Shown here: positions 87-55,635 of the stretch, one piece after another
Position numbering within the stretch: position 1 is the stretch's first letter
How the letters are laid out: each line of letters begins with the position of its first letter
From: an uncultured Clostridia bacterium
GTDB taxonomy: Bacteria; Bacillota; Clostridia; TANB77; CAG-508
NCBI GenBank assembly: GCA_947630445.1
Contig: CANRHQ010000005.1
Coordinates: 1 to 55,635, forward strand
DNA: 55,635 nt
Direction of reading: 5' to 3'
Notes under the pieces: generated by a model
The model's input: only the letters and a program-made list of their open reading frames with translations
Databases searched by the model: none
Told to the model about the DNA's origin: nothing
Program-made: the position numbers and the translations under genes

Positions 87-106
87 ATTCATTCCTCCTT
101 TGCTTC

Positions 107-284
107 TCTTTAATTTATCTACTTAAAGATACTTATAAATTAATTATACCATGTTTTGACAAGAAATACAAGATATTTACAAAATGTAAAATCAGTATTT
201 TAATATAGCAAAAAAACAAGTTAAAAGTAATAAATAAAGACCTCCCGAAAAGAATAAAAAATCCTTAATTAGATAAATTAAGGA
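107..284 (-). promoter_or_regulatory. Candidate invertible promoter cassette, ON orientation toward the gene at 1-86
   Basis: 24-nt inverted repeats 107-130 / 261-284 (21 of 24 positions complementary) flank exactly 130 bp. That segment carries, on the minus strand, TTGTAT (rc 166-171), a 17-nt spacer, then TGgTATAAT (rc 143-151). The -10 box lies 12 nt from the gene-proximal repeat, as in the cassettes at 6934-7117 and 55557-55625. Caveat: the distal repeat is itself palindromic and could be a simple hairpin. Confidence 0.45.
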
Positions 285-300
285 TAAAATATTTAATTTT

Positions 301-2323: not shown

Positions 2324-4763
2324 ATTGATAACTGATTTTAATTTTATTTTCATTTACACTTACAATTGCATTTCTATTTTTTTCTAAATTTCCATCAAGT
2401 ATTTCTTCTGAAATCTTATTCTCTATTACATTTTGTATTGTCCTTCTTAATGGTCTAGCACCAAATGCTTTATCAATTCCCTTTTGTGCAATCATTTTAA
2501 CAACATCTTGCTGTATTGTTATATAATATTTTTGTTCTCTCAATCTATTTTCTACTTGTTTTAGCATTATTTTTGTAATATTTTCAATATCTTTATCATC
2601 TAATTGATGAAATACGATAATTTCATCAATTCTATTTATAAATTCTGGTCTTAATTCTCTTTTTAATTCTTTTATAACTTCTTTTCTTATCTCTTGATAA
2701 TCATTATCTCCTGTATTTTCATTCTCTTTTCCAAAACCTAGATACTTTTTATCTGTTATATATCTTGCTCCTAAATTTGATGTCATTATTATTACAGTAT
2801 TTTTAAAATTGACTCTCCTTCCTTGTGAATCAGTTAAATGCCCATCTTCTAATATTTGTAATAATAAATTTATTACATCTGGATGTGCTTTTTCAATTTC
2901 ATCAAACAAAATAACTGAATATGGTTTTCTTCTTACTTTTTCTGTTAATTGCCCTCCATTCTCAAACCCAACATATCCTGGAGGAGAACCGATTAATTTA
3001 GAAACTGAATGTGCTTCCATATATTCTGACATATCTAATCTTAACATTGAATTTTCATTATCAAATAATATTTCTGACAATGCTTTTGATAGTTCAGTTT
3101 TACCTACTCCTGTTGGTCCAAGAAATAAAAAAGAACCTATAGGTCTTTTAGGATCTTTCAATCCTAATCTACTTCTTCTAATAGCTTTAGATACAGCTTC
3201 TACTGCTTCATTTTGTCCAACTACTCTCTCATGTAATTTTTGTTCTAATTGTCTTAATTTTTCATTATCATCTTCTGTTAATTTTTGTATTGGTATACCC
3301 GTCCATTTAGAAATAATTTCTGCTATATTTTCTTCTGATACTTGTATTACATTATTATTTTTTCTTTTTCTCCATTTTTCTAATTCTTTATTTAATTCTT
3401 CTTGCATTCTTCTTTCTGTATCTCTAATTGTAGCAGCCTTTTCAAATTCTTGATTATAAATTGCTTCCTCTTTTTCTTTTGCTGATATTTCTATTTTTTC
3501 TTGTAAACGTTTTATCTCTTCTGGTTCTGTAAAAACTTTCATTCTTACTTGAGAAGCCGCTTCATCTATCAAATCAATTGCTTTATCTGGTAAAAATCTA
3601 TCTGTTATATATCTTACTGATAAACTTACTGCCATTTCTATAGCCTCATCAGTTATTTTTACATTATGATGTGCCTCATATTTATCTCTTATTCCTTTTA
3701 GCATTTGTATAGATTCTTTCTCTGTAGGTTCACCAACATTCACAGGACTAAATCTTCTTTCTAATGCAGAATCTTTTTCTATATATCTTCTATATTCATC
3801 TATTGTAGTCGCTCCTATTAATTGTATATCACCTCTTGCTAACATAGGTTTAAGGATATTAGCTGCATCTATTGCTCCTTCTGCTGCACCAGCTCCAACT
3901 ATTGTATGTATTTCATCTATAAATAGTATTACATCTCCTACTTTTTTTACCTCTCCTAATGCCTTTTTTATCCTTTCTTCAAAATCCCCCCTATATTTAG
4001 CTCCTGCAACCATTCCTGATATATCTATACTAACAATTCTTTTCTCTTTTAAAACTTCTGGTACTTCTCCTGATACTATTTTTTCTGCCAATCCTTCTAC
4101 TATTGCTGTTTTTCCTACTCCAGGTTCTCCTATTAAACATGGATTATTTTTTGTCCTTCTCGATAATATTTGAATTATTCTTTCTATTTCTTTGTCTCTC
4201 CCTATTATATTATCAAATTTTCCCTCTTCTGCTTTTATTGTTAAGTCCTCTCCAAATTGATTTAAAGTAGTTGTTACTGAATAACTTTCCTTATTTCTTT
4301 TTATATCTTTTTCTACTTCTTTATCACTTTCCTCTTCATTTATTACTTTTGCAATTTCATTAAATATTTTATAAGGTTCAACATTTAACTCTATTAATAT
4401 TTTTACAGCTACACATTCTCCTTCTTTCATTATTGCTAACAATAAATGTTCTGTTCCTATATAGTTATATCCTATTCTTTTGGATTCTATAAACGCATTT
4501 TCTAGGACTCTTTTTGTTCTAGGTGTAAATCCTAATGATTCTTTTATTTCTTCTCCTTTTCCTAACATTTCTTCTATTTTTTTTATTACATTTTCTTCTG
4601 TAATTCCCTTATTGGTTAATACTTTTGAAGCAATTCCTTCTCCTTCTTTTACTAGTCCATATAAAATATGTTCTGTTCCTATATAATTATGTCCTAATTC
4701 AACTGATATATCATTTGCAATTTCTATTACTTTTTTAGCTCTATTTGTAAATTTATATATCAT
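2319..4763 (-). CDS. clpC: ATP-dependent Clp protease ATP-binding subunit ClpC (class III stress AAA+ chaperone)
   Basis: 814 aa. N-terminal Clp-N repeats (GHNYIGTEHILYGL / GYNYIGTEHLLLAI), two AAA+ modules with Walker A GEPGVGKT and GPTGVGKT, and a coiled-coil middle domain. Confidence 0.95.
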   Translation of the reverse strand: MIYKFTNRAKKVIEIANDISVELGHNYIGTEHILYGLVKEGEGIASKVLTNKGITEENVIKKIEEMLGKGEEIKESLGFTPRTKRVLENAFIESKRIGYNYIGTEHLLLAIMKEGECVAVKILIELNVEPYKIFNEIAKVINEEESDKEVEKDIKRNKESYSVTTTLNQFGEDLTIKAEEGKFDNIIGRDKEIERIIQILSRRTKNNPCLIGEPGVGKTAIVEGLAEKIVSGEVPEVLKEKRIVSIDISGMVAGAKYRGDFEERIKKALGEVKKVGDVILFIDEIHTIVGAGAAEGAIDAANILKPMLARGDIQLIGATTIDEYRRYIEKDSALERRFSPVNVGEPTEKESIQMLKGIRDKYEAHHNVKITDEAIEMAVSLSVRYITDRFLPDKAIDLIDEAASQVRMKVFTEPEEIKRLQEKIEISAKEKEEAIYNQEFEKAATIRDTERRMQEELNKELEKWRKRKNNNVIQVSEENIAEIISKWTGIPIQKLTEDDNEKLRQLEQKLHERVVGQNEAVEAVSKAIRRSRLGLKDPKRPIGSFLFLGPTGVGKTELSKALSEILFDNENSMLRLDMSEYMEAHSVSKLIGSPPGYVGFENGGQLTEKVRRKPYSVILFDEIEKAHPDVINLLLQILEDGHLTDSQGRRVNFKNTVIIMTSNLGARYITDKKYLGFGKENENTGDNDYQEIRKEVIKELKRELRPEFINRIDEIIVFHQLDDKDIENITKIMLKQVENRLREQKYYITIQQDVVKMIAQKGIDKAFGARPLRRTIQNVIENKISEEILDGNLEKNRNAIVSVNENKIKISYQS

Positions 4764-5354: not shown

Positions 5355-6911
5355 TTAATATAAAAGAACTTTTCCTTTTATCTTTGTTCCTTTGCTTTCT
5401 ACCTCAATGTCATACGATCCATCTTCAAAAGTACTATAATCTATATAATTTCCACCTTCTTCTATATCATTTATTATATTATTTGATATATTTATAGTCC
5501 CTTTTTCATAATTATTAAATAAATAATAATCACATTTTCCACTATCTATTGTTAAGATTTTCTCATTTACAAAATCATATACAAGAATACCACGACCATT
5601 ATACATAGTGTAATCGTAACCATCTTCAGGAAGGCCAACTGCACGTAATATTTCATATTGGTCAATACTTATTGATAATTTTTTTAATATTTCTCCATCT
5701 ATTTTTATTACAAACTCATATTGTCCCATACCACCTATAAGACAACCATCAACTTCTTGACCATCAGCATCTTCAATCGTAATATCACAAAAATAATTTC
5801 TCAAACTAAAAATAATACCGGCATAAGATTCTTCCGTAAACTCTCCTTCATAGACTAGTCCCTCTGCATACATAAAAAAATCCTTTGCATTTGTATACAG
5901 TTTTACAGAATTACATACTTCTTGCATAAAATCCTCAAAATTCCCTGTTTTCGTTACTTCTGCTTCTTGTGCAGCTTTTAATACTAATTCTTCTACTGTT
6001 AATGTACCTGCATCATCATATTTAGTTCTTAATATTTCTATATATGATTCATATGCTTCTTCTGAATGATATCCCATAAAATTCATAACATAATCTTTTG
6101 GTGTAGTGGATAGCTTCTGCTTATCATATATTTCTTGCATATATCCTTCAAAACTATCTTGGGTTGTTAGTCCATCTTCTTGTGCAGCTTTTAATACTAA
6201 TTCCTCGTCTGTCATAAATTTATCTGGATTTTCTTTTAAAATTCTATCTTTCAAGTCTAAAGAAAATTTTAATGTGATAGTTTCTATTTTTCCACTTTCT
6301 CTATTATAACTCCCCTCAAGATAATACATATCTTCTATTTTTTCTTGTTCTGTTACTTCTTGTCCACTTCCATCTACTAACTTTCCTAATTGTACATCTT
6401 CACTTATATTTTTTCCATAGTATACCACATTATATGTGCCACCTGATGTAGCTGCTATAGAAGGGATCCATGGCATCGAATTTGGATGGGAAACCAACGC
6501 AGCCATCCTAGTCTTTCCTGTTACACCCTCTTCGACTACTTTTTCCAATTTATATACATCTTTTAGACCATCTTTTCCGTTTCCATATATCATTTTCTCT
6601 CCCATTAATTTTTCTACATTAATGATATATCCATCTATTCCTTCTTTTATACTTATTATTTCTTTCTCTGTCAAATAATCTATTAATGTTTTTGTATATT
6701 TACCTGTTTGTTTTTCTGTAGCATATTCTGTTGCTTTTAACTCTATTGCCTCATATATTCCTCTATGAGTTGTTTCTATTTTTGCTTTTTTGGCTTGTTC
6801 TATTATTCCGTTATCTCCTGCTAACATTGATATACTTACACCTGCTAATATTAAAAGCACCACTATTGTTACTACTAATGCTATTAATGTTATTCCTTTA
6901 TTCTTTTGCAT
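5355..6911 (-). CDS. Pilin-like N-terminal module fused to an unassigned extracellular region with an internal duplication
   Basis: Preferred start MQKNKG (ATG = rc 6909-6911) with AGGAGGA = rc 6921-6927; the track start 6941 lacks an RBS. N-terminus MQKNKG/ITLIALVVTIVVLLILAGVSI. The remaining ~480 aa carry no motif I can assign. Confidence 0.85.
   Translation of the reverse strand: MQKNKGITLIALVVTIVVLLILAGVSISMLAGDNGIIEQAKKAKIETTHRGIYEAIELKATEYATEKQTGKYTKTLIDYLTEKEIISIKEGIDGYIINVEKLMGEKMIYGNGKDGLKDVYKLEKVVEEGVTGKTRMAALVSHPNSMPWIPSIAATSGGTYNVVYYGKNISEDVQLGKLVDGSGQEVTEQEKIEDMYYLEGSYNRESGKIETITLKFSLDLKDRILKENPDKFMTDEELVLKAAQEDGLTTQDSFEGYMQEIYDKQKLSTTPKDYVMNFMGYHSEEAYESYIEILRTKYDDAGTLTVEELVLKAAQEAEVTKTGNFEDFMQEVCNSVKLYTNAKDFFMYAEGLVYEGEFTEESYAGIIFSLRNYFCDITIEDADGQEVDGCLIGGMGQYEFVIKIDGEILKKLSISIDQYEILRAVGLPEDGYDYTMYNGRGILVYDFVNEKILTIDSGKCDYYLFNNYEKGTINISNNIINDIEEGGNYIDYSTFEDGSYDIEVESKGTKIKGKVLLY
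5802..6212 (-). repeat. Internal tandem duplication (about 70-75 aa unit) inside the 5355-6911 CDS
   Basis: EELVLKAAQEDGLTTQDSFEGYMQEIYDKQKL..DYVMNFMGY..EEAYESYI is followed by EELVLKAAQEAEVTKTGNFEDFMQEVCNSVKL..DFFMYAEGL..EESYAGII. The DNA motif tcttgtgcagcttttaatactaattc occurs twice, about 220 bp apart. Confidence 0.7.
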
Positions 6912-6933
6912 AATTTTATTTCCTCCTTTGTTT

Positions 6934-7117
6934 TTTATCATTAATTTTATTAACTTAAAGAATTCTAAAATCCTCGGAGGCTTTTATTTTCTAGCTTTTA
7001 TCTTTTTATTAATCTTCATGAAATTCAAAAAAATTTTTTTAAATTCCTTGTAATCATTATTATATTATGTTATAATCACTTTATATATTTCTTTAAGTTA
7101 ATAAAATTAATGATAAA
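6934..7117. promoter_or_regulatory. Candidate invertible promoter element (inverton), OFF orientation relative to the gene at 5355-6911
   Basis: Perfect 29-bp inverted repeats: tttatcattaattttattaacttaaagaa (6934-6962) and ttctttaagttaataaaattaatgataaa (7089-7117). They flank 126 bp containing one strong promoter that faces away from the adjacent gene. Confidence 0.65.
7048..7076 (+). promoter_or_regulatory. Near-consensus sigma-A-type promoter inside the invertible segment
   Basis: TTGTAA (7048-7053), 17-nt spacer, TGt-TATAAT (7068-7076). The -10 box lies 12 nt from the right inverted repeat. Confidence 0.6.
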
Positions 7118-7134
7118 TTTTTACTATAACTATA

Positions 7135-7164
7135 AAAAAGATTGTTGTTTCCAACAATCTTTTT
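7135..7164. terminator. Rho-independent terminator after the GH15 gene (bidirectional)
   Basis: aaaaagattgttg (7135-7147) pairs with caacaatcttttt (7152-7164), 4-nt loop. The A/T runs allow function on both strands. Confidence 0.75.
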
Positions 7165-7167
7165 CTT

Positions 7168-9063
7168 TTATTTATTAAGTTTTTCTAAAACAATTATAAA
7201 CATTGCATGAGACCAACCTAATCCTAATACCCAGTTTGGTTTTAAAGTACTATTATCAATTTGTTCTCCTAAAAAACTATGCTTTCCTGCAGTTTTTATA
7301 ACAAAATCAAATGTTTCCTTTGCTTTTTTCTTTTCTCCATTTTCTAAATAATACAATGTCATCCATAAATTTGCAATTGGCCAAGGTGCACCATTTCTAT
7401 AATGGTCATTTTCAAATCTTTGGTATCCCCCTGTATATGTTCTAATTGTTAAATTAATATTTTCAATAGTATTTTGTATTCTTCTTTCTTTAGGAGAAAA
7501 TACATTAAATGGTATTACAGCCCCTAATAAGCTAATATCTATCCTTTTATCATCTGTATTTCTTACATAAGATTTTCTATTTTCATCATATAAATTTTCT
7601 TCTATATATTTCTTTATTTCAACCTGTAATTTTGATATTGCATCTATATTTTTAGATATTTTTTCTTCTTTTAATCTATTATTTTCAAATTCAGAAACAT
7701 CATCACCTAAAGCATTGTAAATTTTTATCATAGCTCCAAAAGCAGCAAATATACTTGCTAATGAATACAAATGTGTTCCTTCATACATTTCCCACAAGTC
7801 ATAACTTACATGAAACTTTTGAGTTCCATCTATAATATCTCTAGCATATTTTTTCAAAAATTCTATAGCTTTTTCACACATATGTAAATTTACTTTTAAA
7901 AATTTTTCATTTTTTGTATATTCATAGTGTGAATATACTCCATATACTACACTTGCTGTTTCATCAACTTGATATCCCCAACAAGGTGCTAATCTACCAT
8001 CTGTGTAAAAACGTTGTTCCCACATACCATTTTTACTTTGAGTCATTCTACAAAAATTACTGTAAAATTTTTCTGTCTCTTTTGTCATATTCAATATATC
8101 TAATGCTCTTGTTATAAATACTGCATCTCTTGGCCAACAATAAGCATATCTTCCACATTGTGTTAAATCTTCATCAACTTCTGGAGCAGCTATTATTCCT
8201 CCTGTTGATTGATTTGTGAGTAATGGAAATAATAATATACTTCTTTTATAAATATCATATATTTTTTCTTCATAACTATTTTTTGGTTCTTTTATTTCTA
8301 GTCCATTATGTTCTCTAACATATTTTCTCCAGTAAGATTTTGTTTTTGTATATTCCTTTTCTAAATCTATTTTTCTAATTCTTTCAACTTGATCTTCAAC
8401 AGCTTGCATAGTCTTTTTTTCTTCATCAATATATATGCATATTTCAATTTCTTTTTTTTCTCCAGGATTAATTTTTCCTATATCATAGCTTATGCTTGAG
8501 TCTTTTGACATTCCTATATAATCTTTATCATATATTATTGCTGAATGTATCGTATTCTGACTTCCATTTATTTGATGACTTAATAATTTATTTGACTTTG
8601 CAAATGTTGCTACTGAAAATTCATGTGCATATTGAATCATTCCTGTATCTGTTTTCATTCCACTAACAAAATTATTTTGATCTGATAATAATTCTGAATA
8701 GATTAAGAAATTTACATTTAGTTCAATATTTCCATCATTTATAAAAGTATATTTTTTTACTAATACATCTTCTTTTATAATTGCAAAATCTGTTTGTAAA
8801 ATTTTTAAATTAAAATATGTGTTAGTTATTTCTGTATTTAAAATATTTGTGTCTGTATCATAATATTGTAAATATGTATTATTTACATCATCATGTAAAT
8901 ATATTAAATTTGAATCATTTATTTTTACTCCAGTATAGAAAAATTTTAAATATTGTCTATTATCCCTATTAGGATAAGATAAACGTAACATCTCTCCTTT
9001 TCCTGAAAATGTTGCTAATATATTTTTATTTCCTATAATTGCTTCATTTAAGTATTTTTCCAT
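7168..9063 (-). CDS. Glycoside hydrolase family 15 protein (glucoamylase/glucodextranase-like)
   Basis: 631 aa. GGIIAAPEVDEDLTQCGRYAYCWPRDAVF, YDLWEM and GAPWPIANLW motifs are typical of the GH15 (alpha/alpha)6 barrel. RBS AGGGAAGGA upstream. Confidence 0.8.
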   Translation of the reverse strand: MEKYLNEAIIGNKNILATFSGKGEMLRLSYPNRDNRQYLKFFYTGVKINDSNLIYLHDDVNNTYLQYYDTDTNILNTEITNTYFNLKILQTDFAIIKEDVLVKKYTFINDGNIELNVNFLIYSELLSDQNNFVSGMKTDTGMIQYAHEFSVATFAKSNKLLSHQINGSQNTIHSAIIYDKDYIGMSKDSSISYDIGKINPGEKKEIEICIYIDEEKKTMQAVEDQVERIRKIDLEKEYTKTKSYWRKYVREHNGLEIKEPKNSYEEKIYDIYKRSILLFPLLTNQSTGGIIAAPEVDEDLTQCGRYAYCWPRDAVFITRALDILNMTKETEKFYSNFCRMTQSKNGMWEQRFYTDGRLAPCWGYQVDETASVVYGVYSHYEYTKNEKFLKVNLHMCEKAIEFLKKYARDIIDGTQKFHVSYDLWEMYEGTHLYSLASIFAAFGAMIKIYNALGDDVSEFENNRLKEEKISKNIDAISKLQVEIKKYIEENLYDENRKSYVRNTDDKRIDISLLGAVIPFNVFSPKERRIQNTIENINLTIRTYTGGYQRFENDHYRNGAPWPIANLWMTLYYLENGEKKKAKETFDFVIKTAGKHSFLGEQIDNSTLKPNWVLGLGWSHAMFIIVLEKLNK

Positions 9064-30069: not shown

Positions 30070-32688
30070 TTAAATTAATCCATGTAACATTGATAGCGTT
30101 GCCCATATATATTTATCTGGTAATTTCTGTCTGTCAACATCACTTTGACTATATACTGCTCTTGGTAATTCTATTAAAGCTGTTCTTGCAGCTCTACCAT
30201 TACTTGCTAATGCAGTTCTTGCCCAAGATATTAAATATCCATCACCATATCTGTCTAATTGACTTCCGTTACTATTTGGAAATTGAACAGCGTAATACAT
30301 TCCAATTGCTCTATCTCCAATTAATTGTTGATACCATCCATGTAAATCAACTAAAACCGTCTGTCCTTTTTGAGATTTATGTGATATTAAAAAATCTCTT
30401 AATGCTTGTGCTTCATATGCTTGAAATGGTGCTGTTCCTGCATAATTTCTACTTTTTTCATTTGCATTAAATCCTGATGATTTCCAAGCTCTATTCATGT
30501 CAATTCCTTTATGTCCTGGTGCTGCACTATATAATGTAGTTCTTCCTGGTCCATTGTTATCAGTTCCATAATATACACCATCTGGATTTAATGTAGGTAA
30601 TATGTATATTGTCCATTTATCTGCTAATTCATAATCATAAGAATGGTTGTTTTTCAATTCTTCATAAAATTTATTTGCGATTTTTACTAATGCTTCTCCG
30701 TCATGTGCCCAATTATCTTCAAATCCATGTATAGCAAATGTTGCGAAAAATACATTAGGTCCATCTCCATATCTATAATATTTTAAATTTGAACCTCTTG
30801 GATCTCCTTTAATTGCTAAACCACTTACTCCATATATTCCCTCTTCAAATGTAATACCTCTATTTAAGAAAATATATATTACTTCTTCTCCAACAATTGA
30901 ACCTTGTTCATTTTCTATTCTAATTGCTATTTGATGTAATCCTAAACTAAATTGTGAAAAATCTACACTTATATCAAATCCAGGTAGTGGGTTTGTTTGC
31001 GTGTTTCCACAATCTTGTATTGCATTTAAAACATCTTGTCTTGCAGATCTTGTAGCAGTCTCATTTCTATAATATCCATCTATTAATAATTTTACTGTAG
31101 TATTTGGAACTGTAGTCATCATCCATCCACTAATACTCTGTCTTTTATTAAATATCGTATTTCTGTCAAATGGATATTCTATATGTATTCTTGTTCTGTT
31201 TTCTGGAATAGTTGCTGTTACCTCTTCTAAAACATTTCCATTTTCTTCTATCATTTGTAGTTTTAATTTATTATTCCCACTTTGAAATTCTGTAACTGGT
31301 ATTATTAAAGTAAAGTTTGGTGTTGGATTTTCTTCATATGTTCCATATCCTTTTACTATTGAAATTAAATCATATGCATAATATGTATATATTTGTGCAT
31401 TTTCAACTTTTTTATTGTTTAAATATGCAACTATAGTTGTATTAGGTTCTGTTGCTAGTTTCCAACCAGTTATTTCTATTCCTTTTTGTCCCCATGTTAA
31501 GTTATTCAAATTAGTATCTAAATTTAATATATGTTTTATACTTTTATCTATTTTTATTTCTTTTTCAAATGTATCTAATACTTTATTATCTGCTGTTACA
31601 AATTGTATCGTTAATTTATACTTTCCAGTTTGTAAAGTATCTGTTGGTATTTCTATTGTAAAATTTGGAGTTGGATTTTCTTCATATGTTCCATACCCTT
31701 TTACTATTGAGATTAAATCATAAGCATAATATGTGTATATTTGTGTATTTTCAATTTCCTTGCCATTTATTTTTGCAACTAATTTTGTATTAGGTTCTGT
31801 TGCTAATTTCCAACCAGTTACTTTTATTCCATATTTATCAAAAGTTACTCCATCTAATCTTGTATCTATATTCAAAATGTGTTTTATTGTTTTGTCTATA
31901 TTAATTTGTTTTTCTACTTTTTCTAGTAGAATATTATCAGATGTTAAAAATTGAATTTCTACCTTATGTTTTCCTTGACTTATCGTGTCTGTTGGTATCT
32001 TTATTGTAAAATTTGGTGTTGGATTTTCTGCATATGTTCCATATCCTTTTACTATTGAAATTAAATCATATGCATAATATGTGTATATTTGTGTATTTTC
32101 AATTTCTTTTCCATCTATTTTAGCAACTAATTTTGTATTAGCTTCTGTTGCTAGTTTCCAACCAGTTATTTCTATTCCTGTTTTATTAAATGTTGCTCCT
32201 TCTAATATAGTATCTATATTTAATACATGTTTTATGTCTCTAGTAATTAATATTTGCTTTTCTATCATTTGTATAACTTTAGATCCGTCTGATGTTATAC
32301 ATTCAATTCTTAATCTATGGTTTCCTACACTTAATTCTTCTTTTGGAATGTCTATATCAAAGTTTGGTAATGGATTTTCTGCATATGTTCCATATCCTTT
32401 TATTATTGAGATTAAATCGTATTTTCTTGAATATTTTATATATTTACTATCCATTTTCTTGCCATCAATAGATACTACAATTTGCGTATCTTTTTCTGTT
32501 GCAAGTTTCCATCCTTCTATATGTAATCCTTTATCTATAATTACATCTTTATTTAAGTCTGTGTCAATACACCATATTGATATAATTTTATTTTCTGCAT
32601 TTTTTTCATTTACTGCCATAACTATCTGATTTGTTAAAAGTATTGTTACAAATAATATTACTGCTATTATACTGATTATTTTTTTCAT
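30070..32688 (-). CDS. Secreted cell-wall peptidase: five ~115-aa repeats plus a C-terminal M14-like zinc carboxypeptidase domain
   Basis: 872 aa. Signal peptide MKKIISIIAVILFVTILLTNQIVMA. C-terminal domain has IHGFED (HxxE), TLNPDG, DMNRAW and VDLHGW, the M14 zinc-ligand/motif order. Confidence 0.85.
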   Translation of the reverse strand: MKKIISIIAVILFVTILLTNQIVMAVNEKNAENKIISIWCIDTDLNKDVIIDKGLHIEGWKLATEKDTQIVVSIDGKKMDSKYIKYSRKYDLISIIKGYGTYAENPLPNFDIDIPKEELSVGNHRLRIECITSDGSKVIQMIEKQILITRDIKHVLNIDTILEGATFNKTGIEITGWKLATEANTKLVAKIDGKEIENTQIYTYYAYDLISIVKGYGTYAENPTPNFTIKIPTDTISQGKHKVEIQFLTSDNILLEKVEKQINIDKTIKHILNIDTRLDGVTFDKYGIKVTGWKLATEPNTKLVAKINGKEIENTQIYTYYAYDLISIVKGYGTYEENPTPNFTIEIPTDTLQTGKYKLTIQFVTADNKVLDTFEKEIKIDKSIKHILNLDTNLNNLTWGQKGIEITGWKLATEPNTTIVAYLNNKKVENAQIYTYYAYDLISIVKGYGTYEENPTPNFTLIIPVTEFQSGNNKLKLQMIEENGNVLEEVTATIPENRTRIHIEYPFDRNTIFNKRQSISGWMMTTVPNTTVKLLIDGYYRNETATRSARQDVLNAIQDCGNTQTNPLPGFDISVDFSQFSLGLHQIAIRIENEQGSIVGEEVIYIFLNRGITFEEGIYGVSGLAIKGDPRGSNLKYYRYGDGPNVFFATFAIHGFEDNWAHDGEALVKIANKFYEELKNNHSYDYELADKWTIYILPTLNPDGVYYGTDNNGPGRTTLYSAAPGHKGIDMNRAWKSSGFNANEKSRNYAGTAPFQAYEAQALRDFLISHKSQKGQTVLVDLHGWYQQLIGDRAIGMYYAVQFPNSNGSQLDRYGDGYLISWARTALASNGRAARTALIELPRAVYSQSDVDRQKLPDKYIWATLSMLHGLI
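30856..32583 (-). repeat. Tandem coding repeats (period about 348 bp; 4 similar copies plus 1 divergent)
   Basis: Repeat core ..GWKLATEPNTKLVAKIDGKEIENTQIYTYYAYDLISIVKGYGTYAENPTPNFTI.IP... Track antisense ORFs starting MYICVFSIS recur at 31733 and 32081, giving a 348-bp spacing. Confidence 0.9.
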
Positions 32689-32752
32689 TTTTTAAATCTC
32701 CTCTTTACATTTGATAATTACAACTCAAAAAATGTTGCATTTTATAAAATTT

Positions 32753-35203
32753 TTAATATTTTTTATAACAAGAATTCAAATCTGTTTCAGTGTTTATTCC
32801 CCATACTGTTCCTTTGTCTGAATATTGCCACATTTGATATTCTCCAGCAAAATTTGATCTTACTGTTTCATCATATGTAAAATGTGCAAGCCAAATATCA
32901 TATATAGATAATTCTGAAAAATTTAAGTAATTATTAAAATAATTATAATTTGCATAAATCATAGGTGTATATCCATAATATCTTATTACATCACAAAATC
33001 CTCTACATATTAAAGTTCTTGTCTCTTTACTTAATAAATCTGCCCTTCCTGGAAGTTCTCCTTTTGATCTTGCTCCTGAATCTTCTACATCTATTGAAAT
33101 AGGAAAATCTATTTGTAATTTATTTTGATGTATTTGACTAATAACCCATAATGCTTCTTCTTGTGCTTCTTCTAGATTAACTGCTTGTGTTACAAAATAA
33201 ATTCCAACTTTTAATCCTGCTGATTTAGCTTCTTTTATATTATACAATGCTTTTGAATCTAAAGTACATATTGGATTTCTATATCCTCTATATCCTAATC
33301 TAATTATTGCAAAATCAACACCTGATGTTGCAACTTGTTTCCAATTTATATTTCCATTATGTTGACTAACATCTATTCCATTATACTTATCACCATATAT
33401 AGCAGTAAATTCTACATTTTTTAAAACTGTTTTTCCATCTGGTGCTAAAAATTGAATCTTTACTTTATGATTTTGCCAACTTAACTTTTCTGTTGGAATA
33501 TTTATATCAAAATTTGGTAATGGATTTTCTTCATATGTTCCATATCCTTTTACTATTGAAATCAAATCATATTTTCTTGAATATGTAATACAGTCTTCAT
33601 CTATTTTTTGTCCATCTACTAATACTGCTAATTTTGTTCCTTCTTCTGTTGCCAATTTCCATCCTGATATATGTATTTTTCTATTTTCATTAAATATTAC
33701 TGCATCTAAATTTGTATCTATTGTTAATATTGATTTTATTGATTTATCTATAATAATAGTATTAGTAACACTTTCTAATATTGTTCCATCTTGTAATACA
33801 AATTGTATTCTTAAACTATGTTTTCCATTACTTATTTCTTTTGTTGGAATATAAATATCATAATTTGGTTTTGGATTTTCTGCATATGTTCCATATCCTT
33901 TTATTATTGAAATTAAATCATATTTATAAGAATATATAATATTGTTTTCTACTTCTTGTCCATCTATTAATACTATTAGTTTTGTGTTTGGTTCTGTTGC
34001 AAGTTTCCATCCTTCTATATGTATTCCATATTTATCAAATTTTACATTATTTAGTATTGTATCAACTTGTAATAAATGTTTTACTTTTTCTACTGTTATT
34101 GTATTTTCAATACTTTCTAGTATCGTTCCGTCTTGTAATACAAATTGTATTTTTATGTTGTGCTTTCCATCACTTATATTAGTTGTTGGAATATCAACAT
34201 CATAATTTGGTAATGGGTTTTCTGTATATGTTCCATATCCTTTTATTATTGAGATTAAGTCATATTTTCTTGAATATTTTATATAATTATCATCTACTTT
34301 TTGTCCATCTATTAATACTTCTAATTTGGTATTTGGCTCTGTTGATAATTTCCATCCTTCTATATGTATTCCACTTTTTCCAAATACTATGCCACTTAAA
34401 TTTGTATCTAATTGTAATGCATGTCTTACTTTCTCTACTATTATTGTATTTTCAATACTTTCTAGTATTGTCCCGTCTTGTAGTACAAATTGTATTTTTA
34501 AATTATGTTTTCCATCACTTATATTAGTTGTTGGAATATCAACATCATAATTTGGTAATGGGTTTTCTGCATATGTTCCATATCCTTTTATTATTGAGAT
34601 TAAATCATATTTTATTGAATATTTTATATAATTATCATCTACTTTTTGTCCATCTATTAATACTTCTAATTTGGTATTTGGCTCTGTTGCTAATTTCCAT
34701 CCTTCTATATGTATTCCACTTTTTCCAAATACTGTGCTACTTAAATTTGTATCTAATTGTAATGCATGTCTTACTTTTTCTACTGTTATTATTGTTTCTA
34801 CATTTTTTAATACTGTTCCATTCTGTGATATAAATTGTATTTTTAAGTTATGTTTTCCATCACTTATATTAGTTGTTGGAATGTCAACATCATAATTTGG
34901 TAATGGATTTTCTGCATATGTTCCATATCCTTTTATTATTGAGATTAAATCATATTTTCTCGAATATTTTATATAATTATCATCTACTTTTTGTCCATCT
35001 ATTAATACTACTAATTTAGTATTTGGCTCTGTTGCTAATTTCCATCCTTCTATATGTATTCCGCTTTTATCAAATACTGCATTTTCTAAATTTGTATCTA
35101 TTTGTAATGCTGATTGTATATTTGTATTAGCATAAGCTATAGAAAATATACTTACACCAAATAATAATATAATTAAAATTATTAATAATTTAAGTCTTTT
35201 CAA
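32753..35203 (-). CDS. Secreted cell-wall muramidase: five ~115-aa repeats plus a C-terminal GH25 lysozyme domain
   Basis: Preferred TTG start at 35203 (AAGGAGA = rc 35214-35220) gives signal peptide MKRLKLLIILIILLFGVSIFSIAYA; the track start is 35224. GH25 motifs: YNGIDVSQHNGNINW, FAIIRLGYRG, ISIDVED, YQMWQYSDKG. Confidence 0.85.
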   Translation of the reverse strand: MKRLKLLIILIILLFGVSIFSIAYANTNIQSALQIDTNLENAVFDKSGIHIEGWKLATEPNTKLVVLIDGQKVDDNYIKYSRKYDLISIIKGYGTYAENPLPNYDVDIPTTNISDGKHNLKIQFISQNGTVLKNVETIITVEKVRHALQLDTNLSSTVFGKSGIHIEGWKLATEPNTKLEVLIDGQKVDDNYIKYSIKYDLISIIKGYGTYAENPLPNYDVDIPTTNISDGKHNLKIQFVLQDGTILESIENTIIVEKVRHALQLDTNLSGIVFGKSGIHIEGWKLSTEPNTKLEVLIDGQKVDDNYIKYSRKYDLISIIKGYGTYTENPLPNYDVDIPTTNISDGKHNIKIQFVLQDGTILESIENTITVEKVKHLLQVDTILNNVKFDKYGIHIEGWKLATEPNTKLIVLIDGQEVENNIIYSYKYDLISIIKGYGTYAENPKPNYDIYIPTKEISNGKHSLRIQFVLQDGTILESVTNTIIIDKSIKSILTIDTNLDAVIFNENRKIHISGWKLATEEGTKLAVLVDGQKIDEDCITYSRKYDLISIVKGYGTYEENPLPNFDINIPTEKLSWQNHKVKIQFLAPDGKTVLKNVEFTAIYGDKYNGIDVSQHNGNINWKQVATSGVDFAIIRLGYRGYRNPICTLDSKALYNIKEAKSAGLKVGIYFVTQAVNLEEAQEEALWVISQIHQNKLQIDFPISIDVEDSGARSKGELPGRADLLSKETRTLICRGFCDVIRYYGYTPMIYANYNYFNNYLNFSELSIYDIWLAHFTYDETVRSNFAGEYQMWQYSDKGTVWGINTETDLNSCYKKY
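33392..35110 (-). repeat. Tandem coding repeats (period 345 bp, 5 copies; the first three are near-identical)
   Basis: Repeat core ..GIHIEGWKLATEPNTKLEVLIDGQKVDDNYIKYSRKYDLISIIKGYGTYAENPLPNYDVDIPTTNISDGKHNLKIQF... Track antisense ORFs starting MLEYQHHNLVMGFL recur at 34183 and 34528, giving a 345-bp spacing. Confidence 0.9.
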
Positions 35204-35301
35204 TTTACCAAAATCTCCTTCCAATAATATAATTACCTATATAAATTTTAAATTATATTATATATAAAATCAATAGCAATAATTGGTTACACTTACTTAA
35301 T

Positions 35302-54105: not shown

Positions 54106-54262
54106 TTACTTGACGTACAGTGTGGCACGTGAACTAAGATCGATGATGCTGTCGGCAGGACTATTGCTGTCGCGGTAACTAGCTGGCCAGTTAGAACCGG
54201 AAACGCCGTAAGCGCCCCCACGATTATCACGAGAGTTGATGCCGTAAGCCTCTAGAGACCAT
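54106..54262 (-). other. Candidate DGR variable region (VR) at the 3' end of the FGE-domain gene
   Basis: Right after ..REW the codon usage flips. 21 of the last 50 codons end in C (TAC GGC ATC AAC TCC CGC GAC AGC GCC GTC..). All four Arg codons are CGT/CGC. The apparent scaffold codons lack adenine (GGG GGC GCT GTT GGT TCT TGG CCT CTT CTG). I counted 33 A in 150 nt, in an otherwise A-rich gene. Confidence 0.55.
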
Positions 54263-55512
54263 TCCCTCATGTTTCCTGCTAGGTCATATATATTTTTTAC
54301 TCTATTTAATACTTGTTCATCTTTTTTTAAATCTACTCCTGTTTTATGGTCGCTATTAGTATTATTATCACTTCCTTTTACTCCACTGTACCAGCCCATT
54401 CCACTACTATCTGTTATATAATACTTATTTCCTCCTGTTAATGTTGGATTTTTTTCATCTTTCATCCACAACATTACTTGGTCCCACTGGCATCCCCATA
54501 TCATGCTACTTGTTACACTTGACTGTGTTTTTCCTTGTGTTTTTTCTTCCTCTGTTAATGCTCCTTTTGCTATTTCTTTACTATTTTTATACATTGTATA
54601 CCAATTTGTGTCTACTGTTGGATTTTCTCCCTTTTTTACTTTTGGAATTTCATTGTCTTTTAATCCTGATGTCTCGTATCTTCCTATATAAAAACCTCCA
54701 TATTTTCCTACACTTTTTGCCATTTCATAAAATTCGTTTTGTAATTGTTCTAAAAACTTTTCACTTGTTTTTACTTCTCCTTCTACTACTTTATTTAAGT
54801 TTGTATCGCTTCCATCACATTGTGTTCCATCTCCACTAGAATTGCCAGTTACTACTGCTGGCTCTCTATATCCACTGTTCGCATTATATGTTGTATTTGA
54901 TGTTAATGTATTACCATTAATAGTTGTATATAGCTTTCCTACCAATTCTTGGTTGCTTGGCGTATGTGTTTCACTTTCACCATGAGTACAAGTGAATGTA
55001 TTTGTTTCCTTATTAAAAGTAATTGTAGATCCTGAATGCGTTTTACACATTACCATATCATTTATTGCTACTGGCACCCATACAAATTCATTTCCATCTC
55101 TATCTTGTACTACTATTCCTTCATCTATTTTGTCTCCTTCTGTTATTTTAAATCCTGCTGGTATAGTCATACTTTTGTCTCCATCTTTTACCTCTGTTGT
55201 TTCGTTAAATGGGTCAGTTTTTTCCTTTGCTTCTTCTAATGTTGTTTGTGTTGTTCCTCCACCAGAACCATCTCCTCCTGTTCCTCCGTTTACCCAATTT
55301 GGTATATCTTCTGCTGTTTTGTTAAGGTCTTGCTCTTCTTTTGCTTCCTCTTCCCTTGTTCTTTCTGCTGCTAGCTTTGCTTGGGCTATTATTCCATTTT
55401 CTCCAGTTAACATAGCAATAGCTACTCCTGCTAATATTAAAAGTACTACTATTGTTACTACTAATGCGATTAAAGTGATACCTCTTGTTGCCTTCAAATT
55501 TTTCTTTTTCAT
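54106..55512 (-). CDS. Pilin-like N-terminal module fused to an FGE-sulfatase / C-type-lectin-fold domain
   Basis: 468 aa. RBS GGAGGAAG. N-terminus MKKKNLKATRG/ITLIALVVTIVVLLILAGVAI and a Gly-rich linker. The FGE-type domain runs from MTIPAGF..FVWVP to YDLAGNMREW..RGGAY..SYR....P, matching the GN(V)WEW / RGGSW / R..R pattern of that fold. Confidence 0.85.
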   Translation of the reverse strand: MKKKNLKATRGITLIALVVTIVVLLILAGVAIAMLTGENGIIAQAKLAAERTREEEAKEEQDLNKTAEDIPNWVNGGTGGDGSGGGTTQTTLEEAKEKTDPFNETTEVKDGDKSMTIPAGFKITEGDKIDEGIVVQDRDGNEFVWVPVAINDMVMCKTHSGSTITFNKETNTFTCTHGESETHTPSNQELVGKLYTTINGNTLTSNTTYNANSGYREPAVVTGNSSGDGTQCDGSDTNLNKVVEGEVKTSEKFLEQLQNEFYEMAKSVGKYGGFYIGRYETSGLKDNEIPKVKKGENPTVDTNWYTMYKNSKEIAKGALTEEEKTQGKTQSSVTSSMIWGCQWDQVMLWMKDEKNPTLTGGNKYYITDSSGMGWYSGVKGSDNNTNSDHKTGVDLKKDEQVLNRVKNIYDLAGNMREWSLEAYGINSRDNRGGAYGVSGSNWPASYRDSNSPADSIIDLSSRATLYVK

Positions 55513-55556
55513 TTTTTCTTCCTCCGTTCTTTTGTTTATTATATTTCCTTGTAAAA

Positions 55557-55625
55557 TTTCTTTAATTTTTTATGCTTAAAGAAAATGTATGAACTAATTA
55601 TAACAAAGAGGGACAATAAGTTCAA
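55557..55625 (-). promoter_or_regulatory. Promoter plus gene-proximal repeat of a third cassette, ON orientation; distal part lies beyond the window
   Basis: TTGAAC (rc 55620-55625), 17-nt spacer, TGt-TATAAT (rc 55597-55605), 12 nt, then TTTCTTTAAGCATAAAAAATTAAAGAAA (rc 55557-55584). This element is related to the CTTTAAG..ATAAA.TTAA repeats at 107-130 and 7089-7117. Confidence 0.5.
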
Positions 55626-55635
55626 GCATTTTACT

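Follow-up and report, generated by a model that had tools for sequence, protein, structure and literature searches.

A putative promoter inverton, caught in the OFF orientation, upstream of a gene with a pseudopilin-like N-terminus in an uncultured gut Clostridia bacterium

Anatomy of the locus

The DNA analysed here corresponds to a contig from a rabbit-gut metagenome that belongs to an uncultured Clostridia bacterium (its ENA assemblies are ERZ27249xxx, and 'Lapin' is the label of relatives). The whole stretch of 55,635 nucleotides (55.6 kb), referred to as the window, has a G+C content of 26%. It encodes housekeeping proteins (ClpC, RNase J, FtsK, MutL, MiaA, MreB, DivIVA, SepF, Era and RecO) together with a cell-wall polysaccharide cluster that includes Wzm/Wzt. 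Two adjoining large proteins (872 and 823 aa, window positions 30070–35224) each join a DUF6941 region to a cell-wall hydrolase domain, which is a peptidase M14 in one and a GH25 muramidase in the other. The element studied here occupies 184 bp (6934–7117) and has the following surroundings:

5355–6911, minus strand: the putatively controlled gene, with a 518-aa product; public gene calls agree
6922–6926, minus strand: RBS of this gene (GGAGG), just outside the left arm
6934–6962, plus strand: gene-proximal inverted-repeat arm, 29 nt, perfect, TTTATCATTAATTTTATTAACTTAAAGAA, found by repeat search
6938–6961: core site of the proximal arm, TCATTAA-TTTTATTAAC-TTAAAGA
6963–7088, no strand assigned: segment predicted to invert, 126 bp, unique in the window
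7048–7076, plus strand: predicted sigma-70/SigA-type promoter TTGTAA-17-TGtTATAAT, a consensus match from a promoter scan
7089–7117, minus strand: gene-distal arm, the exact reverse complement of 6934–6962, with its core site at 7090–7113
7135–7164, both strands: bidirectional intrinsic terminator, from hairpin folding and U-runs
7168–9063, minus strand: GH15 gene, the upstream neighbour that shares the strand of the controlled gene, given for context only

An earlier note on this DNA had described exact 29-bp inverted repeats around 126 bp, and our search confirmed them. TTTATCATTAATTTTATTAACTTAAAGAA occurs exactly twice in the window, and no third copy appeared even when 3 mismatches were allowed. 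In 100 dinucleotide-preserving shuffles, again tolerating 3 mismatches, 29-nt arms were matched 0 times. With the repeat finder, each arm grew to 37 nt, at 92% (6934–6970 and 7081–7117).

The promoter at 7048–7076 scored 10/12 plus an upstream TG and was the top site in 6700–7400. It is directed away from the 5355–6911 gene, and its −10 box ends 12 nt from the arm, or 13 nt if the core site is taken as the reference. The note's claim of one strong internal promoter pointing off the gene was thereby borne out, and so was its placing of the RBS and the ATG (A at 6911) just beyond the left repeat. It had also seen no comparable promoter facing the gene, which held: the sole gene-facing promoter-like site scored 9/12 (6941–6913), and it overlaps the RBS and the start codon and is thus unable to serve the gene.

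The hairpin at 7135–7164 folds with −13.0 and −16.1 kcal/mol on the two strands (z = −6.5 and −6.8), with a U-run after each. On the minus strand it terminates GH15, and on the plus strand it would stop the transcript of the OFF-oriented promoter. The terminator had previously been read as a device that limits antisense transcription into the GH15 gene. Its bidirectional nature and its position facing the promoter stand, whereas its primary role is rather that of GH15's own terminator, which also insulates against read-through. Within the segment itself, a terminator candidate at 6963–7010 folded no better than shuffles (z = +0.4), and no Rfam family matched 6500–7600 at E ≤ 1.

The 518-aa protein combines a conserved pseudopilin-like hydrophobic N-terminus (KGITLIALVVTIVVLLILAGV) with a unique C-terminal part for which no Pfam match was obtained. 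Calling it pilin-like, as had been done from the sequence alone, is justified only by a weak N-terminal resemblance: pseudopilin models stayed below threshold (GspG, E 0.006–0.02, 15–17 bits, cut-off 88.85), and Ala replaces the Glu5 of pilins (position +5). One distant homologue (P0230) is named 'pseudopilin PulG' in one JGI source. The N-terminus GITLIALVVTIVVLLILAGV is common to four window genes, which start at 86 (−), 777 (+), 6911 (−) and 55512 (−); the gene at 777 has a GDSL-lipase C-terminus. Elements are present at three of these four family genes seen in the window's genome. Members of this very large family vary widely, with 6405 database proteins matching at E ≤ 0.001 and C-terminal domains that differ and often contain LRRs. 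Among full-length relatives, P0003 is the nearest to the target protein, at 38–39% identity. Its locus (L003 2230–2500; the same in L004 and L005) has no inverton. There the palindrome ACATAATAAATTATGTATA stands on either side of the promoter, twice in direct orientation, and the adjoining gene is divergent and of the HTH_3 (XRE-type) family, a layout which suggests repressor control.

Sister elements and a shared site architecture

Two of the other family genes of the window have elements of their own:

104–287, minus strand: sister element of the paralogue with its ATG at 86 (p86), arms 104–130 and 261–287
55559–55625, minus strand: sister element of the paralogue at 54106–55512 (p55512), proximal arm 55559–55582

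The arms at p86 are 27 nt long, 85% identical and 130 bp apart. At p55512 the distal arm lies past the window end and was found in contig L009 (3775–3798), where the complete pair has 24 nt, 96% identity and 132 bp between the arms. Both promoters are directed at their genes, that is, ON (TTGTAT-17-TGgTATAAT, 171→143, at p86; TTGAAC-17-TGtTATAAT, 55625→55597, at p55512), and in both the −10 box ends 12 nt short of the arm. The order of −10 box, 12 nt, repeat, RBS and ATG that the earlier note had pointed out at these paralogues is therefore real; it had not recorded that at both of them the promoter is itself enclosed by a pair of repeats and oriented ON. When 6963–7088 of the target was inverted in silico, the entire intergenic stretch between the upstream terminator and the start codon could be aligned with its p86 counterpart. 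The window's genome thus has at least three of these elements, two ON and one OFF.

Some further observations concern the ends of these contigs. The first letters of the window already belong to the conserved part of p86 that encodes the N-terminus, and the last ones to the upstream promoter element of p55512, so that both ends (1–86 and 55512–55635) lie at family paralogues. The breaks of the sister contigs L002, L010 and L011 coincide with these positions or are close to them; assembly breaks hence tend to fall at repeated family sequences. In L009, a tRNA-like sequence (GGTGGATTCGAACC..., ~3630–3705, read by eye) is located about 70 nt upstream of the p55512 distal arm on the opposite strand.

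Beyond the window, the succession of an arm, 110–165 bp with a promoter, the second arm, an RBS and the gene recurs at about 30 related loci, found in gut Clostridia MAGs and in metagenomes. A search of the species-representative genomes of GTDB, with the N-terminal peptide as the query, gave 80 loci, and all of them lie in uncultured Clostridia gut MAGs. Inverted repeats (score ≥13, gap 90–180 bp, end ≤90 nt from the start codon) were detected in 15 of 76 upstream regions, versus a shuffle expectation of 0.1. The core pattern TC[CT]TTAA[GT]-N8/9-TTAA[AG]GA matched 27 times in the 367 kb scanned, each time at an arm (27/27). Metagenome contigs searched with the two-arm pattern gave 16 loci, among them 14 with the same kind of element beside family genes. 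We excluded the matches L104 and L110 as unrelated. L104 (JGI contig Ga0213829) has a 52-bp tandem array at 4243–4475, in which the words TCTTTAAT...CTCTTAAAGAC occur five times in direct orientation, and no family gene was seen nearby.

Alignment of the arms revealed a common architecture. Each arm consists of the symmetric half-sites TCTTTAA and TTAAAGA, which flank an asymmetric 9–10-bp spacer with G or T as its usual first base. Arm lengths range from 21 to 30 bp across the family, with only 21–23 nt at some loci, and the −10 box lies 12–18 nt from the core site in ON and OFF elements alike. Every locus has a spacer of its own: among 29 arm pairs, partner arms in the inverted register were 98% identical in their spacers, versus 53% across loci. 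Read as direct repeats, partner spacers agreed at only 2–8 of 9–10 positions. Symmetric half-sites around a locus-private, partner-matched asymmetric spacer look like the core site of a recombinase. The resulting signature is searchable (TCTTTAA, a private spacer of 9–10 bp, TTAAAGA; two copies 140–190 bp apart, start to start). Two loci of sample ERZ1643246, L098 (349–537) and L099 (1024–1211), have the same arm sequence with the spacer GTATATTAC, in opposite polarity relative to their genes. Since their spacers are identical, recombination between these two loci could occur.

Could the arms instead be operators, that is, palindromic sites for a dimeric transcription factor which loops or represses the promoter through a pair of sites about 150 bp apart? 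Each arm is internally dyad-symmetric, as such a model would have it, and the locus of P0003 shows two direct palindromes, albeit a different one, around a promoter next to a divergent HTH_3 gene. Operator spacers need not be mutual reverse complements, yet here they match at 98% in the inverted register. The model also leaves unexplained that the homologous promoter module between the arms occurs in either orientation, and no regulator gene adjoins in the window. We therefore regard an operator pair as very unlikely.

A chance insertion upstream of the gene of a MITE, a terminal-inverted-repeat element with an outward promoter, is scarcely credible, even though 184 bp with terminal inverted repeats fit the size and shape of such elements. 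The interior is unique in the window, interiors of paralogous copies are just 70–88% alike, and the arm spacers differ in every copy. Moreover, copies with a resolvable neighbour sit at a fixed site, where the RBS or leader of a gene from one family follows directly; a few lie too near a contig end. Reading the flanks gave no target-site duplication, and no transposase was found among the scanned ORFs.

Orientation states, recombinase search and the proposed switch

We called the state of each element by comparing the direction of the best promoter inside it, taken as a consensus match, with the side of the family gene. The tally was about 8 ON and about 23 OFF:

ON: p86, p55512, L023, L025, L041, L082, L098 and L107 (181–348)
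OFF: the target, L014, L018, L076, L091, L016a, L016b, L022, L027, L028, L039, L066, L069, L084, L088, L095, L096, L097, L100, L101, L107 (2191–2382), L108 and L109

Both states were met within single MAGs, on one contig and in one sample:

Lapin-027 bin8: ON at L082; OFF at L014, L018, L076 and L091
BRZ_EF bin101: ON at L023 (perfect 23-nt arms); OFF at L016, L039 and L069
Contig L107: ON at 181–348; OFF at 2191–2382
Sample ERZ1643246: ON at L098; OFF at L095

BRZ_EF bin101 has at least five elements and Lapin-027 bin8 has five. In the sample ERZ1643246, L095 and L098 are 91% identical over 926 nt across element and gene, and their interiors aligned with a score of 38 when one was reverse-complemented, versus 14 without. 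The L082 contig begins inside the element and matches the reverse complement of the L076 distal end at 95%. The possibility that L082 is a second assembly of an OFF locus of the same MAG was rejected; it is a distinct paralogue.

Individual loci were then compared across all public contigs that encode the target protein, its neighbours or the L016a protein. No orientation polymorphism was found at the target locus, where the window, L001, L002 and L010 are all OFF (4/4 assemblies), and the L016a locus likewise showed a single orientation in 4/4 assemblies. A junction specific to the ON state of the target was not found in JGI metagenome contigs. When the contigs of P0131 (22), P0162 (11) and P0195 (9) were examined for both states, no inverton was present upstream.

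These uniform orientations bear on the main alternative to an inverton, namely a relic: the family inverted in the course of evolution, and this copy or the species' whole system is now locked, with the gene silent or expressed by other means. One orientation per locus across assemblies would fit a locked system, as would the lack of a recombinase among the genes found nearby. The decayed arms at several ON loci (p86 with 85%, L025 and L041) point the same way; the ON loci of our first scan of 76 regions had imperfect arms, and ON examples with perfect arms were found later (L023 and L098). Yet assemblies report the majority state, so uniform orientation is weak evidence against switching. A single orientation is indeed what consensus assemblies are expected to give, as a survey at the level of reads covered 1837 gut invertons and had a minor-orientation frequency above 0.1 for only 389 of them (PMC11892184). 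The target arms are perfect over 29 nt in an intergenic region of a 26% G+C sequence. Above all, 29 loci keep the spacers of partner arms identical (98%) while these differ between loci (53%), which needs continuing selection or homogenisation driven by recombination. Overall, we judge a relic unlikely.

We searched for the enzyme as well. Pfam and NCBIfam scans revealed no recombinase among the window ORFs, with no hit to an integrase or resolvase family. Homologues of FimB, FimE, XerC and PinE (phmmer, E < 0.01) were absent from 776 ORFs in the 444 kb of window and related loci, and no recombinase was found within about 1.5 kb of ~100 related loci. That the window has no recombinase gene, as the earlier note had stated, was thus upheld, and with none found beside any related locus either, the enzyme would have to act in trans. 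The site architecture suggests a recombinase of the tyrosine type.

If no dedicated recombinase existed, RecA could flip the segment by homologous recombination on the 29-bp repeats. The outcome of the search agrees with this, and 29 bp is about the minimum length for RecA-dependent exchange. Arms of merely 21–23 nt at some loci speak against it. So do the half-site words TCTTTAA and TTAAAGA, which are kept across loci, genomes and hosts while the spacers vary; conserved half-sites with freely varying spacers point to recognition by a protein and not to mere homology. Exchange by RecA alone hence appears highly improbable to us. Neither this, nor an operator pair, nor a MITE accounts for the combination of matched private spacers, both orientations and a fixed position at one gene family.

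Some related loci have other regulatory features. At eight loci, a short and conserved leader, ATGAAA...GCCTTGrGGCTGTA, and a (CA)6-17 tract of varying length lie just upstream of the family gene:

L013 1292–1303; L021 1251–1272; L026 1322–1345; L035 1341–1358
L055 1291–1314; L057 1456–1489; L067 1156–1173; L086 1333–1350

The L057 leader forms one reading frame with the family gene (MRKHESLEAVHTHTHTHTHTHTNVLKNKGITLVALV). These loci look like cases of slipped-strand phase variation, which would be a second type of switch in the same protein family. In a human-gut 'group B' (L096, L097, L100–L103, L105, L106 and L109; e.g. L097 2709–3159), a hairpin terminator is located inside the invertible segment beside one arm. 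The leader that follows has 200–450 nt; two distant stretches of it show conserved complementarity (AAATCCATAAAAA ... TTTTTATGGATTT), and a very small ORF (MVFFQKEKQKS) precedes the family gene. Wherever the gene side of a group B locus is resolvable, the promoter is directed away from the gene. At L016 (~1430–1490), L022, L023, L028, L088 and L094, 45–60 nt separate the proximal arm from the RBS. In these gaps a GGTATTTACAAATACC-like palindrome overlaps a second, fixed promoter-like site (TTTACA-16/17-TATAAT), and in L094 the palindrome shows a compensatory change relative to L016. An operator-controlled promoter may exist there besides the inverton.

Taken together, we consider the element at 6934–7117 to be a promoter inverton caught OFF, with a probability of roughly 75%. 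The same reading had been put forward in the earlier note, and it now gains support from the about 30 comparable loci in which both orientations occur. We infer that the segment flips in present-day cells and that its promoter is active. A recombinase encoded elsewhere in the genome would bind both arms, and strand exchange inside the identical spacers would turn the 126-bp segment around. In the OFF state the segment promoter would fire at the terminator at 7135–7164, which would also block GH15 read-through into 5355–6911; facing away from the gene, and with read-through blocked, it would leave the gene promoterless. In the ON state the −10 box would come to lie 12 nt from the proximal arm, and transcription would pass through arm and RBS into the gene; the ON paralogues have this arrangement. 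The predicted junctions of the inverted target read ...TATAATCACTTTATATAT|arm|AAACAAAGGAGG. Many members of this very large, hypervariable family of uncultured gut Clostridia, presumably surface proteins with an N-terminal anchor, carry an element of their own. As each locus has a private spacer, the genes could switch independently, without cross-recombination between loci.

Relation to known switches and possible meaning

The earlier note had likened the element to E. coli fimS and to the capsule invertons of Bacteroides. Both hold as functional analogues, and only as such; the mpl system of Mycoplasma penetrans, in which the genes of a multigene family each have an invertible promoter, is closer, by analogy and not by homology. 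According to PMC2268961, which summarises Horino et al. 2003, most genes of the mpl (P35) lipoproteins have their own invertible promoter, and candidate recombinase genes are placed near mpl genes. Unlike in mpl, no recombinase was found close to the loci described here. What both systems have in common is a variable surface-protein family spread over the chromosome, a short promoter element upstream of the genes and, as predicted here, independent switching. Several members, each with its own inverton, are represented in our case by the target, p86 and p55512. The mpl proteins are lipoproteins from a different phylum-level lineage, whereas a pseudopilin-like N-terminal anchor is predicted here. 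Moreover, the repeats of M. penetrans are short (about 12 bp) compared with our arms of 21–30 bp, which are built of half-site, spacer and half-site.

In Bacteroides fragilis, the promoter invertons of capsular polysaccharides are reportedly flipped globally by Mpi. Many dispersed promoter invertons with a common repeat motif, a recombinase acting in trans and most loci OFF would be shared with the system proposed here. The Bacteroides repeat motif appears unrelated to our arms. The predicted promoter here is of the sigma-70/SigA type (TTGnnn-17-TGnTATAAT) and not of the Bacteroides type, and the targets are single protein genes instead of polysaccharide operons. Mpi is a serine recombinase, whereas the site here, with its asymmetric spacer of 9–10 bp, is more like the core of a tyrosine-recombinase site.

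The E. coli fimS switch, 314 bp with 9-bp repeats, resembles our element in that a short invertible segment holds the promoter of an adjoining surface-structure gene and sets it ON or OFF. Its recombinases FimB and FimE are encoded beside the switch, while we found no homologue in the window or the 444 kb of related loci. Furthermore, fimS is one locus and the present elements form a family.

Clostridioides difficile, a member of the same class Clostridia, has the tyrosine recombinase RecV, which acts in trans on several switches (cwpV, flgB and others) with repeats of 20–30 bp at surface or motility genes. In the best-studied of these, a fixed promoter is located upstream of the switch, which works by termination in the 5′ leader, unlike the present elements with a promoter inside the invertible segment. 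The repeats of these switches appear unrelated to our arms.

The hCom2 survey of cultured gut bacteria contains inverton groups dominated by Clostridia, such as group 139, which is linked to a tyrosine recombinase group (PMC11892184). These groups are read-supported, come from cultured gut Clostridia, were formed by repeat homology and are statistically linked to tyrosine recombinases (PMC11892184). The words of our arm motif do not occur in the accessible portion of the supplementary text of that survey. Our organisms are uncultured and lie outside the hCom2 community.

The concept of an invertible promoter is itself not new. There is ample documentation of such promoters for Bacteroides, enterobacteria, mycoplasmas and C. 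difficile, and much less for uncultured Clostridia, which make up a large share of gut communities. The literature searched contained neither this site motif nor any account of switching by proteins of this family, and no paper on the N-terminal peptide word.

For annotators, the locus holds a caution, as a gene that appears promoterless in an assembly may just be OFF. The site signature opens a route to phase-variable surface proteins directly from MAGs and provides a defined substrate for finding the responsible recombinase. The clade occurs in rabbit, Hadza, Nepali and other human guts. As a tentative proposal, to which we give somewhat less than even odds, these widespread AT-rich uncultured gut Clostridia might practise antigenic variation in the style of mycoplasmas. 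Dozens of pseudopilin-anchored, LRR-rich genes would stand under promoter invertons with private spacers, one trans-acting recombinase (probably a tyrosine recombinase) would serve them with few genes ON at once, and others would vary by (CA)n slippage within a leader peptide. If this is true, the family, with more than 6000 public proteins, would form an important phase-variable interface, not recognised until now, at which commensal Firmicutes meet their host or phages.
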